From: Eledone cirrhosa
Taxonomy: Eukaryota
Direction: 5' to 3'
DNA: 64,000 bases
Assembly: GCA_964016885.1 (NCBI GenBank)
Contig: OZ024740.1
Coordinates: 23,374,001-23,438,000 of the forward strand
Positions 3,435-41,007 of this stretch are shown here, in pieces. Position 1 is the first letter of the stretch. The number at the start of each line of letters is the position of its first letter. A program made the position numbers and the translations under genes. The notes beneath the pieces were generated by a model. It was not told the origin of the DNA and did no database searches. It was given only the letters and a program-made list of their open reading frames with translations.

Positions 3435-3634
3435 GGAACGAGTAGGACACCGGCGGCTGAGCTCAAGCCGTTTCGGCGGCTAATTCTGGATTAGTAGTCC
3501 AGAATTACCCGTCGAAACGGCTTGAGCTCAGCCGTCGGGGTCCTACTCGTTCCTATTATCCACTCTACTACCCTAAGTATTGAGTACTTTGGTGCGTTAT
3601 GGTCCACCTGGTTCCTTACCACATTTCCTTCGTT
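3435..3634 (+). mobile_element. family A hairpin+tail insertion in (TA)n
   Basis: GGAACGAGTAGG...CCTACTCGTTCC palindrome plus ~80-nt tail ending CATTTCCTTCGTT; near-identical copies at 20466, 29565 and 40275. Confidence 0.85.
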
Positions 3635-3744
3635 ATATATATATATATATATATATATATATGTGTGTGTGTGTGTGTAGAAGAACGTAGGAAGGAGCGT
3701 AAAAAATAAATAACACTAGTTATAATAATAATATATATAATAAT

Positions 3745-3922
3745 TGTTTCTACTTTTTGGCACAAGGCCAGCAATTTCCCAGTACATTACTGGTACTTTA
3801 TTTTATCGACCCCTTAAGGATGAAAGGCAAAGTTAACCTCTGCGGGATTTCAACTCAGATCGTTAAGGGACGAAACTATGCTGGAAAGCATGGTGTCTAA
3901 CTCTCTACCGATACTGCCAAAT
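3745..3922 (-). mobile_element. tRNA-derived SINE
   Basis: Reverse complement of the SINE at 40050: TGGCAGTATCGG A-box-like motif, B-box-like motif, GCCTTTCATCC...GGGGTCGATAAAATAAAGTACCAG body. Confidence 0.85.
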
Positions 3923-3947
3923 ATTAATATATAATAATGTATATATA

Positions 3948-4066
3948 GTAATAATAATAAATTTGAAGACTAAAATCCAAAGAGGGCTCGAAAAGGATAA
4001 ATATATATCAAATATATAAGAAACGATTCTTTGCTTAAACTTTAAACTGTTATTTTAATAAATAAA
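3948..4066 (-). mobile_element. family M short (TA)n insertion (tail plus arm end)
   Basis: TGAAGACTAAAATCCAAAGAGGGCTCGA shared with the copies at 35290 and, reverse-complemented, 23812. Confidence 0.7.
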
Positions 4067-4091
4067 TATATATATATATATATATATATAT

Positions 4092-4893
4092 GGAAAGTTA
4101 TATTTAAATTGTTGGGTTACAACTAGTAAATATTTATAACTGATATAAAAGCACTCGACAAATATTTGGAGTATATTTACAATATTAAATAAATGGAAAC
4201 TATATTTATAAAACCATATTTATTTCATTATATATATTTCAGGGATATCATATTAACAATATGCTATGCCTTCCTCAGACAAAATACAATATAAACAGTT
4301 TTATAGATAAATAGATTCGACATACCGTAACAACATCTACTTGCATTTGAGAAGGTCGATTTGGTAGTGACAAAATTGTACACAGAGAGAAAGAAAGAGA
4401 GACATTAATACTAGAGCTAAATAAATAAATAAATAAATAAATGTATCATTGATACGTTATTCAACAGTCGTCCCACTACCTAGCTTTCTATATATGTATC
4501 TATCTCTATTTCCTCTCTCTCTCTATATATATATATATGTCTCTTTCTGTTTCTTTACATGAAGTTCTTCTCTTTATCTATCTTTCCATCTCTCTATTTT
4601 GTTCCATGCATTTCTTCTTTTTCTTTTTCTTCGTTTTTCTGTCTTTCTTTCCTTTTTTCTCTCTTTTTCTCTCTTTCTCTCTCTCTTTCTTTCTCTCTGT
4701 GTACAATTTTGTCACTACCAAATCAACCTTCTCAAATGCAAGTAGATGTTGTTACGGTATGTCGAACCTATTTATCTATAAAACTGTTTATATTGTATTT
4801 TGTCTGAGGAAGGCATAGCATATTGTTAATATGATATCCCTGAAATATATATAATGAAATAAATATGGTTTTATAAATATAGTTTCCATTTAT
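4092..4893 (-). mobile_element. family B foldback insertion with two hammerhead copies; tail on the left
   Basis: Inverted arms ~4178-4402 and ~4680-4893; tail 4092-4177 contains AGCACTCGA; (TA)n on both sides. Confidence 0.85.
4796..4861 (+). ncRNA. type I hammerhead ribozyme (mirror copy 4220-4285 on the minus strand)
   Basis: Stem I TATTTTGT/ATGAAATA; core CTGAGGA; stem II AGGCATAGCATAT..ATATGATATCCCT; GAAA-T ATAT A-TA with palindromic short stem III. Confidence 0.8.
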
Positions 4894-4922
4894 TTAATAT
4901 TGTATATATATATATATATATA

Positions 4923-4954
4923 TTTCGTTTCTGACCCTCCCAAAGTATAAGAAT
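4923..4954. mobile_element. ~32-bp termini-only remnant of family C (Naiad-like PLE)
   Basis: TTTCGTTTCTG is the reverse complement of the tail end at ~36843-36853; it is fused to TGACCCTCCCAAAGTATAAGAATA, the arm end seen at ~36772-36795. Confidence 0.7.
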
Positions 4955-5592
4955 ATATATATATATATATATATATATATATATATATATATATATATAT
5001 ATATATATATATATATATATATATATGTATTCATATGAGGATGGCAGCTGATAATAAGGAGTTTTCAAAGTAGAGTGTAAATATTCATGAAATTATGGTT
5101 AAATTGTGAGTCTTGTAATCTGGAGTATCTACGTAATAAAATAAATACACACGTGTGTATGTGTGTGTGTGTGTGTGTGTGTGTGTGTGTGTGTGTGTGT
5201 GTGTGTGTGTGTTGTGGTGTGTGTGTGTGTGTGAGGTGTGTGTGTGTGTGTGTGTGTGTGTGTGTGTGTGTGTGTGTGTGTGTGTGTGTTGTGGTGTGTG
5301 TGTTGTGGTGTGAATGGTGTGTGGTGGGTGTTGTGGTGTGTGTGGTGTCTGGTGGGTGTGGTGTGTGTGTGTTGTTTTCTGTTGCGTGTTGTGCTGTGAG
5401 TGCTGTGGTTTGTGTGGTGTGTGGTGTGTGTGTGTTGTGGTGTGTGTACTTTCAAATATACGGAGTATCATTAGAAATAATATATTAAAGGAGGTGTGAT
5501 TATCACAAATGTGTGTATGATATATAAGATGTATAACATATTATATGTATATGATGTATGACGTATTATATATATATATATATATATATATA

Positions 5593-5772
5593 TGGCAGTA
5601 TCGGTAGAGAGTCGGACGCCATGCTTTGAAGCATAGAGTTGCGTCCCTTTATGATCTGAGTTCAAATCTCGCCGAGGTTAACTTTGCCTTTCATCCTTAC
5701 GGGTTCGATAAAATAAAGTACCAGTAATGTACTGGGTAATTGCTGGCCTTGTGCCAAAAGTAGAAACAATTA
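5593..5772 (+). mobile_element. tRNA-derived SINE
   Basis: TGGCAGTATCGGTAG, GAGTTCAAATC B-box, conserved body, ends CCAAAAGTAGAAACAATT. Confidence 0.9.
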
Positions 5773-38518: not shown

Positions 38519-39734
38519 CGCACAGATTTATTTTCGCTCTGCTTGCATACATTCCATAGAACATTCCATAAAGTATTCAGCTAATATCTCAATACCCTAT
38601 TAGTTAAAATCCTCTTCTCTCAAAGGCTTATATATCTTTTACAAATATACCCATCTTTCTACCTTATTTCAGTATTATATATTATATAATACAATTTACT
38701 CATTCTATGTCATTCTTCTTTATCATTTTCCTTTCTTCCTTTTTTCTTTTTTAATTTCTAATCTCTAATCTGTACTTTTTCTTCCCAATTACTTCTCAAT
38801 TCATATTATTACTCACTACAGCATTATCCATTCTTCCATCTTTCCTCATATTATTGGCCATTAAAACTATATTTTTTTAATACATTATAATATTACCATT
38901 AGAAGATTTCCGTAAAACATATAAACTTTTTTGACGTTAGATATTCTTTTCTTCTTTCTTCTCTCCTTCCCTGCTCGTTTTAAACCCACTACTTACTTTT
39001 ACTTTTACATATTACAATACATAAAAACAAACTTAAACCCCAACTTATTTCTTTTTAATATTTTATAATATTACCATTAGAAAATATTTCGTAAACATAT
39101 ATACTTTTTGACGTTAGATATTTTCTTCCTTAAACATTCTTTTTCTTCTCTCCTTCCATACTCATTTTAAACATACTATTTACGTATACATATTACAATA
39201 CATAATAACAAGCTTAAATCCTAACTAATTCCTCTAAATTCATAACTCATTTATTCTTCTCCTTCTTTTCACATTATATCCTTAATATCCTTAATATTTT
39301 TATCTTAATAATACATATTAATAAATTCTTTTCTTCGCACATATTATTAACCCCTTCAATATACAAACCTTAATTTAATACTATTCTTAATTCCTTTTTC
39401 TTCATGCATACACCTCATTAACTTTTAACTTCAAAATCTTTTAAATTATCTATTATCTTCCAACGGTGTTTTAATTTCTTTCTGTGAGACAATATTTTCT
39501 CAGTTGTAAAGGCTATCTCTCTCTCTCTCTATCACCCATTTCTCCTCCTCTCTCATCTTTCGTTCCTATACTCCTCCGCCACCATCCTTTACTCTTATTT
39601 CTTCCTCTTCCTTACCCCCAACCCCACCCCGCACTTTTTCCCAATCTCATACATCCATCTTAATTTATTTTTCATATGTTGATTTAAAAATACACTGCTC
39701 ACACGTGTTTTTTAAGCTTCATATCATGTCTCCC

Positions 39735-39805
39735 TATTTTATCTGATGAGAACGCAGATATCATCCCATGATGATATTTGTTTTTGAAATGCGCATAATA
39801 AAATA
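39735..39805 (+). ncRNA. intact type I hammerhead ribozyme (mirror copy 38041-38111 on the minus strand)
   Basis: TATTTTAT-CTGATGA-GAACGCAGATATCATC ccat GATGATATTTGTTTTT-GAAA-TGCGCA-TA-ATAAAATA. Confidence 0.9.
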
Positions 39806-40049
39806 CTTGGAACTCTTTTAACCAACTTTTGATCTTATATATATATATATATATATATATATATATATATATATATATATATATATATATATATATATAT
39901 ATATATAAATATATATATATATATATATATATATGTATGTATATATATATATATATATATATATATATATATGTATGTATGTGTATATATATATATATAT
40001 ATATATATATATATATATATATATATATATATATATATATATATATAAA

Positions 40050-40237
40050 GGCGGTGGATTGGCAGTATCTGTAGAGGGTCGGACGCCATGCTTTCCAGCA
40101 TAGTTACGTCCCTTTACGATCTAAGTTCAAATCCCGCCGAGGTTGACTTTGCCTTTCTTCCTTACGGGGTCGATAAAATAAAGTACCAGTAATGCACTGG
40201 GTAATTGCTGGCCTTGCGCCTAAAGTAGAAACAATTA
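40050..40237 (+). mobile_element. tRNA-derived SINE
   Basis: GGCGGTGGATTGGCAGTATC head, GTTCAAATCC B-box, conserved body. Confidence 0.9.
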
Positions 40238-40274
40238 TATATATATATATATATATAAAATATATATATATATA

Positions 40275-40464
40275 GGAACGAGTAGGACCCCGACGGCTGA
40301 GCTCAAGCCGTTTCGACGTCTAATGAGTCCAGAATTAGCCGTCGAAACGGCTTGAGCTCAGCCGTCGGGGTCCTACTCGTTCCTATTACCCACACTACAA
40401 CCCTAAGTATTGAGTACTTTGGTGCGTTATGGTCCACCTGGTTCCTTACCACATTTCCTCCGTT
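40275..40464 (+). mobile_element. family A insertion retaining most of a hammerhead
   Basis: CTAATGA-G..C-GAAA-CGGCT tgagctc AGCCG-TC-GGGGTCCT at 40320-40374, with a GUC cleavage triplet. Confidence 0.85.
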
Positions 40465-40514
40465 ATATATATATATATATATATATATATATATATACAT
40501 ATACATATATATAT

Positions 40515-40830
40515 TTAAGTTAAACAAGGTTCAATGAATAAATCAAAGAATGAGTTTTACAATAGATATGAAACACTCAACAGCAATGGTTTTCCAAAGT
40601 TATTAATATTAATTCAAAAATATTAACAAAATTGATATTAATAGATGGTTAAGATTCAGTCATCTACCATGACTGAATCTTAACCATCTACTATGTCTGG
40701 GTATGTCATGCATCATCTTATTTTATCTGATGAGGACGTACTGTTGAAGTTAACTCAGTACCTCTGAAATATGTATAATAAAATATACTTGATCACAAGA
40801 ACATCTATTTATCATATTTTGAATTAATAT
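40515..40830 (-). mobile_element. family D insertion: tail at left, internal 22-bp hairpin, hammerhead arm
   Basis: AACACTCAA tail motif; TAGATGGTTAAGATTCAGTCAT/ATGACTGAATCTTAACCATCTA hairpin; ATATTAATTCAAAA/TTTTGAATTAATAT ends. Confidence 0.8.
40719..40785 (+). ncRNA. type I hammerhead ribozyme
   Basis: TATTTTAT-CTGATGA-GGACGTACTG..CAGTACCTCT-GAAA-T atgt A-TA-ATAAAATA. Confidence 0.85.
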
Positions 40831-40844
40831 ATATATATATATAT

Positions 40845-41007
40845 AACGAAGGAAGTGTGGTAAGGAACCACGTGTACCGTAACGCACTTAGGGTAATAGA
40901 GTGGGTAATAGGAAAATGTTCAAGACCCCGAACGTAGGCTCAAGCTGTTTCGACGGCTATTTCTTAGTCCAGCATGAGCTCTGCCGTCGGGGTCTTGAAT
41001 ATTTTCC
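40845..41007 (-). mobile_element. family A variant
   Basis: AACGAAGGAAGTGTGGTAAGGAACCA is the reverse-complemented tail; GGAAAATGTTCAAGACCCCG/CGGGGTCTTGAATATTTTCC arms. Confidence 0.8.

Follow-up and report, generated by a model that had tools for sequence, protein, structure and literature searches.

Fixed outer ends and paired arms suggest that short palindromes in Eledone cirrhosa arise by priming from both ends of a cut target on one Penelope-like RNA

The stretch of Eledone cirrhosa DNA analysed here (GCA_964016885.1, contig OZ024740.1, 23,374,001-23,438,000 of the forward strand; 64,000 nucleotides (nt), hereafter the window, whose positions are used throughout) contains four copies of a short palindromic repeat, family A, each bounded by (TA)n, together with one diverged relative. 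Each copy consists of an inverted and a sense arm joined head to head, and we refer to the outer end of the inverted arm as site A and to that of the sense arm as site B:

3435..3633, + strand: copy 1 of family A; the inverted arm spans 3435-3490 with site A outermost, the sense arm 3495-3633 with site B outermost, and 4 nt of filler lie between them
3554..3633, + strand: A-B segment of copy 1, 80 nt, equivalent to the Penelope 'tail' and derived from the 5' untranslated region (UTR) of the parent element
3562..3585, + strand: bulged hairpin ACTC...GAGT, immediately 3' of site A
20466..20657, + strand: copy 2 of family A; arms 20466-20523 (inverted) and 20524-20657 (sense), joined bluntly
29565..29694, + strand: copy 3 of family A; arms 29565-29604 (inverted) and 29604-29694 (sense), sharing 1 nt
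40275..40463, + strand: copy 4 of family A; arms 40275-40325 (inverted) and 40326-40463 (sense)
40845..41007, - strand: diverged relative of family A; B end at 40845, A end at 41007

In all four copies, GGAA follows (TA)n at site A (3435, 20466, 29565 and 40275), CGT precedes (TA)n at site B (3633, 20657, 29694 and 40463), and the two sites are spaced by 80 nt. Both sites end in TAT, in agreement with the target. The junctions between the arms are all unlike (4-nt filler, blunt, 1-nt overlap and blunt, respectively): the inverted arm of copy 3 extends more 5' than its sense arm, and the sense arm of copy 4 begins right at the position defined below as the cap (+0).

Judged from its sequence, family A is the pseudo-long terminal repeat (pseudo-LTR) and 5' UTR of a Penelope-like retrotransposon with Hydra-clade motifs. 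In the full-length parent, L061, (TA)n is followed by a truncated copy in inverted orientation that ends at B, by a partial tandem that holds a 719-amino-acid open reading frame (ORF), and by a last repeat that ends at A, after which (TA)n resumes. Within the tandem, the sequence continues through A and through B into the ORF, and both sites are therefore internal, within the 5' UTR. This frame codes for a reverse transcriptase (RT) plus a GIY-YIG domain, and the YRDD and VIY..YIG motifs are kept in 12 homologs. Among 8,000 scored candidates we obtained 2,054 homologs, the top one of which matched PF01541, while a Pfam search with the L061 ORF itself gave no match and a search of solved structures gave none at E values up to 1. 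The traits listed for the Hydra clade in the excerpts of PMC8557442 are RW(K/R), DKT, CxCX5C, and a GIY-YIG domain without CCHH but with CxxC and CxH beside its catalytic E and N. L061 carries RWR (versus RWK in 12 of 12 homologs), DKT (also in 11 of 12), the CxCX5C linker CNCPDRSIC, CNLC (CxxC) and CKH (CxH), lacks CCHH, and has, by eye, a single cysteine between VIY and YIG. By ORF and structure, family A belongs to the Penelope-like elements, and its sequence motifs place it in the Hydra clade. Pseudo-LTRs built from tandem or inverted partial copies, together with a one-sided tail, are found in L061 and in 28 of the 40 long regions considered below. Unbroken Hydra-type ORFs of about 714 codons are numerous in several families (L221-L250), and 25 of the best 30 matches contain no stop.

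The parent also carries, at L061:3300-3395, a predicted three-way hammerhead-like fold with GAAA and GUC in register (z = -0.12). In its core, UUGAGAA replaces CUGANGA, and subfamilies have either UUGAGAA or UUGAUAA; this may be a U3-A8 swap of the C3-G8 pair. An Rfam search returned no hammerhead match for family A. An RNA that begins at +0 would not contain this core.

The arrangement seen in the window recurs throughout the 3.0-Gb genome, in which 14,568 sites match a 52-mer from this A-B segment exactly (control, 0). Of the first 100 places in the list we inspected 99; these all lie on contig C1 and were chosen solely for an intact tail. The tail ends exactly at B in 92, no more than 3 nt off in five and reads through in two, and 97 of the tails run into TA; target-site duplications are unreadable within (TA)n. 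An inverted arm was called at 74 of the 99 places, and its outer end lies exactly at A in 66 of these. Manual reading of the remaining 25 gave 12 long or complex insertions and 13 without an arm of at least 12 nt, so the palindrome is the rule in family A, not universal. These counts bear out an earlier note on this stretch, which had described four family A copies with fixed outer ends and variable junctions and, usually, TA/ATA microhomology at site A; its proposed variant at 40845 is indeed a diverged copy on the opposite strand.

The 74 copies with a called arm fall into 66 junction classes, of which six recur, two of them across subfamilies. Descent from a few inherited junction classes, the outcome that the same note had set against its idea of two independently primed cDNAs, one per end of a cut (TA)n, is thus not what we find, and its idea gains further support from the observation that either arm can be the longer one. 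Filler is present at 24 of the 74 junctions. Overlaps of at least 1 nt occur at 31 of 44 filler-free junctions, compared with 19 expected (p = 0.0003; mismatch-tolerant parser, with five overlaps dropped, three being 14-nt artefacts and two 19-nt overlaps within the stem III palindrome). This excess is compatible with end joining and does not discriminate between models. Within a copy, the two arms show 0.87 differences over 39 nt, compared with 2.49 between arms of different copies (n = 47 copies). Of 73 short copies, 45 have arms that reach to within 5 nt of each other; the inverted arm reaches further in 18 and the sense arm in 10, and three have arms that do not overlap. Truncated B arms (10) were not significantly in excess of truncated A arms (3; p = 0.09).

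The pairing of ends was counted genome-wide by patterns with matched spacer windows. The combination of A with a continuing tail was matched 8,874 times and that of A with A 125 times (about 65 loci, most counted on both strands), and B plus B was found at 36 loci. Mixed A and B ends therefore make up about 99%, whereas independent choice permits 50% at most. We also read 40 regions around long arms, 23 picked as head-to-head pairs and 17 as unpaired arms; by eye, both ends were resolved in 28, and all of these pair A with B. In these 28 insertions the longer arm is A in 12 (by about 2.5 kb in L131) and B in 11, the arms are about equal in four, and one is complex; in L147 and L158 the whole B arm lies within the tail. 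That either arm may be the longer one argues against fold-back copying. Arm classes are paired as well: both arms stop at the cap in 46 of 71 short copies, which include no pair of a capped with a long arm, and 48 of 100 listed long arms lie in head-to-head pairs of no more than 7 kb, compared with one tail-to-tail and three direct pairs. Both enzymes thus seem to engage one repeat zone of one template, and end pairing and arm lengths together make it likely that both break ends prime on one RNA.

Short arms have an inner limit. Taking L061:3349 as +0, the stops of 56 of the 91 short sense arms, and of 58 of the 74 inverted ones, lie between -5 and +7; only one arm of each kind ends between -148 and -6, and 8 of 99 sense arms extend further. 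Genome-wide, 24,604 arms reach +1, 5,064 reach -5, only 6 nt further, and 4,119 reach about -23. In family A, a TATA-like box starts at -29 and is degenerate in two subfamilies. F2, another family of Hydra type, has its TATA-like box, TATAAATA, at -30, and 12 of its 15 called inverted arms (30 loci) stop at 0 to +6 of its cap. In addition, units of L085 and L092 start at the cap (+1 and -3) and continue into the ORF. Arm stops and the spacing of the box point to the cap as the likely RNA 5' end, in which case the short palindromes would likely stem from priming near the mRNA start.

Two further observations concern the same region. The tandem units of L085 and L092 restart at the cap after an ORF-internal point, as in template jumps from the RNA 5' end, and such jumps are a possible source of the partial tandems. 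A minor cluster of arm ends at +38 to +42 (8 of 91 sense and 3 of 74 inverted arms) coincides with the predicted hammerhead cut; we rejected it as a sign of hammerhead cleavage, because the position is also the edge of stem III.

Besides family A, a script found eight further palindromic inserts between TA runs in the first 1-42 kb of the window, with tails of 29-122 nt, some of them shortened by inner TA runs. The earlier note had likewise seen other families behaving like family A; its letters C, H, I, J and M could not be mapped onto our families. Among these and other Penelope-like features are:

6786..6982, + strand: palindrome of another family; tail about 53-58 nt, RCTC/GAGY-type hairpin past A
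8500..11982, - strand: long F1-related copy of Penelope-like type, with RT and a C-terminal endonuclease; site A at 8500
23814..23981, + strand: F10 palindrome, whose parent L246 has a GCTC...GAGC hairpin past both A and B
36094..36233, no strand assigned: copy of F2; tail-bearing arm and A arm head to head, the A arm ending at the F2 cap
36267..36852, + strand: F1 (not Hydra-type); A-B distance 60 nt, no hairpin motif, 444 exact matches
36876..37010, + strand: palindrome of another family; tail 86 nt, RCTC/GAGY-type hairpin past A
37471..37865, - strand: palindrome of another family; tail 75 nt, RCTC/GAGY-type hairpin past A

The F2 family has 7,683 exact 33-mer matches genome-wide and a canonical CUGAUGA hammerhead core. 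A hairpin closed by RCTC and GAGY lies a few bases past site A in 8 of 27 palindrome clusters (seven families); in 2,000 shuffles the number averaged 0.29 and never exceeded 3. The family A parent has a second hairpin directly 3' of site B, which is missing in inserted copies. In read-through copies the hairpin starts 5 nt past A and 3 nt past B in family A (84 and 60 ends) and 2 nt past A and 3 nt past B in F10 (12 and 17 ends), and H221 has two such hairpins, with three resolved ends right before the second. Two docks on one RNA would account for both the fixed ends and their strict pairing.

We therefore consider it probable that the palindromes consist of two cDNAs, primed from both ends of a cut (TA)n on one RNA and then end-joined. 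The GIY-YIG domain would cut both strands of (TA)n, and both resulting 3' ends would prime RT on a single element RNA, the first at site A and the other at site B, both internal. Two copies of the protein, bound to the two hairpins, could position the primers through TAT/ATA pairing, in which the target end might base-pair with the RNA over three bases. The B-primed enzyme would have to displace the A-primed cDNA across the shared 60 nt; Penelope-like enzymes are not known to have RNase H. The two cDNAs would finally be end-joined head to head. With the cap as RNA 5' end, priming in the 5' pseudo-LTR would give 190-nt palindromes, and priming in a downstream pseudo-LTR reached by read-through would give long and full-length copies. 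Three parts of the earlier proposal give way here. It had placed one priming at the RNA 3' end, yet B is internal and the parent runs through it into the ORF. It had assumed cDNAs of arbitrary length and had seen a different junction in every copy; the diversity is real, but it is bounded, as short arms halt at one cap. And it had called for two templates or a tandem or circular RNA, whereas strict A and B pairing and the pairing of long with long arms are most simply explained by one RNA.

A scheme with two RNA molecules, in which both ends prime and an asymmetric protein pair uses A on one and B on the other, is unlikely. It makes strand displacement across the shared 60 nt unnecessary, template jumps do happen (L085 and L092), and arms of the same subfamily are expected when both RNAs share one source locus; however, the pairing of long with long and of capped with capped arms would require that the same pseudo-LTR zone be used on separate RNAs, whereas two hairpins on one RNA explain it directly. 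It is also conceivable, but distinctly unlikely, that priming is two-ended and the cap marks a stall of RT in the stem II region of the hammerhead rather than the RNA start. The cap does fall in the predicted stem/loop II, and the arm ends are scattered over 13 nt. Yet the enzyme already traverses the stronger stem III, arms that pass +0 mostly continue (from 5,064 to 4,119), and the F2 cap lies 5' of the hammerhead core, although again 30 nt past a TATA box.

Fold-back self-priming, close to the model in the excerpts of PMC3846280, would have one cDNA fold and copy itself to the other site, followed by resolution of the hairpin. The head-to-head shape, the near-identical arms and the A and B pairing would follow naturally, and the 45 of 73 short copies with arms of similar reach fit as well; but the second arm must lie inside the first strand, and 12 of 28 long and 18 of 73 short copies have an A arm that extends beyond the B arm. 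Non-overlapping arms in three short and two long copies, and the one-sided deletions needed in about half of the long copies, add to this, so that fold-back is largely refuted here and we regard it as very doubtful. Hardly credible is a master palindrome resembling a miniature inverted-repeat transposable element (MITE), which would spread whole and have its junctions altered by later deletions at the axis. Palindromes are prone to deletion, and six junction classes do recur, but the number of classes is high, two of the recurrent ones cross subfamilies, and 24 junctions have gained sequence. Moreover, the A and B ends are constant in long copies, whose arms span 60 nt to more than 3 kb, and an RT-coding element has this sequence as its 5' UTR. 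A MITE or palindromic DNA transposon would be a fixed unit with terminal inverted repeats and no RT origin; variable junctions and lengths and the one-sided tail do not agree with this.

Several points nevertheless count against paired priming on one capped RNA with two docks. The three genome-wide patterns are unequal in fixed letters, and the one with 8,874 matches checks continuation of the tail, not the B end (97 of 99 sampled tails reach B). L032 is a complex exception, in which a long A arm and a capped B arm are joined via an extra piece, and an inverted arm is absent at 13 of 99 tail ends. Two subfamilies of family A have TATTCAAA or TATTCATA as their TATA-like box. The hairpin motif was picked post hoc, from the same data; F2 has only a short, different hairpin past B, and F1 has none past A. 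DNA cannot reveal the order or simultaneity of the two primings. Finally, work on Poseidon of Anolis (PAc) found, in the excerpts of PMC11167929, no strand difference in start site, and equal start sites on both strands would not by themselves give strict A and B pairing.

The window has further features of note. The long copy at 8500..11982, of another clade type, has one arm ending at site A and another consisting of the tail alone (11924-11982), which stops at A; folding back of a single cDNA could not produce this without a large deletion on one side. By eye, its asparagine-rich insert and CxxC linker suggest the Neptune/Nematis type, with stops near 9679 and 9286; Naiad was dropped, because the endonuclease is C-terminal. 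The 3' parts of two more Penelope-like families, with a hammerhead-like motif near the end, lie between (TA)n at 7791-8457 and 26039-28585 (- strand). A very abundant repeat resembling a short interspersed element is frequently found beside TA runs (3690-3870, 5594-5770, 22490-22680 and 40048-40235), and an assembly gap of 200 N lies within a TA run at 20020-20219. A decayed long interspersed element at 12513-18250 (+ strand) retains an ORF1 zinc knuckle and an ORF2 (endonuclease-RT) in pieces, and long AAC-rich and TGGTGT-rich tandem arrays occupy 42343-51464.

The shape of these insertions is the published Penelope-like architecture, which the earlier note had not recognised. As described in the excerpts of PMC8557442 and PMC3846280, Penelope-like insertions carry a head-to-head inverted, 5'-truncated copy and a tail at one end. 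There, resolution by the endonuclease is held to produce the tail, and self-priming from an antisense template the inversion; the arm lengths found here argue against self-priming. End pairing is uncounted in these passages and was counted here. New to this well-known architecture are the A and B pairing of about 99%, the finding that either arm can be longer, the cap, and the hairpins past A and B. Family A shares with the Hydra clade of PMC8557442 a single ORF with RT and C-terminal GIY-YIG, a (TA)n target and a predicted hammerhead-like fold near the end, and one family listed there also has a 5'-truncated inverted copy attached. It departs from what these excerpts describe in its more than 14,000 copies, mostly 190-nt palindromes, its UUGAGAA core, and its tail of 67-90 nt, where Penelope-like elements are quoted as having 30-40 nt; for Hydra-1_oBim, the hammerhead given there differs in sequence.

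The closest biochemical parallel comes from PAc, which cuts and extends both strands of AT-rich DNA in vitro, initiates near a stem-loop at two internal positions in the RNA, between which the tail lies, and is predicted to form a dimer (PMC11167929). PAc belongs to a different clade, the excerpts report no target homology, compared with TAT at both family A sites, and the two cDNAs are not combined there into an inverted insertion. A circular RNA has been proposed for tandems (PMC4209133, in excerpt) and is not required by the present data. Our literature search, which covered few subscription papers, found no statement of two-ended priming on one RNA for Penelope-like elements. Twin priming of L1, which reportedly goes back to Ostertag and Kazazian in 2001, uses one primer at the poly(A) end and a variable inner site, and its arms barely overlap. 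In family A, by contrast, A and B are two fixed internal sites, overlap of the arms is complete upstream of A, and two-ended priming would be the main pathway. A summary of the L1 process has both sides of the break priming on one RNA, with the 5' part inverted (PMC2246262, in excerpt).

Hydra-clade elements in general might even be obligate, programmed twin primers, in which two repeated hairpins dock two RTs, the tail equals the spacing of the docks, and docks at the mRNA start cause most events to abort to short palindromes, tens of thousands per genome; to us, the case for and against this wider proposal is evenly balanced. The origin of the inverted pseudo-LTR and the one-sided tail was open according to the excerpts of PMC8557442 and partly answered in vitro by PMC11167929, and family A adds counts in the thousands that discriminate between models, as well as two hairpins and a start point as targets for mutation. 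Family A is also a source of many short perfect palindromes, whose transcripts would form double-stranded RNA; a link to RNA editing (PMC5625713) is a lead only. If two-ended priming on one RNA is true, a telomerase-related enzyme would write simultaneously from the two sides of a break, which ordinary target-primed copying does not do.

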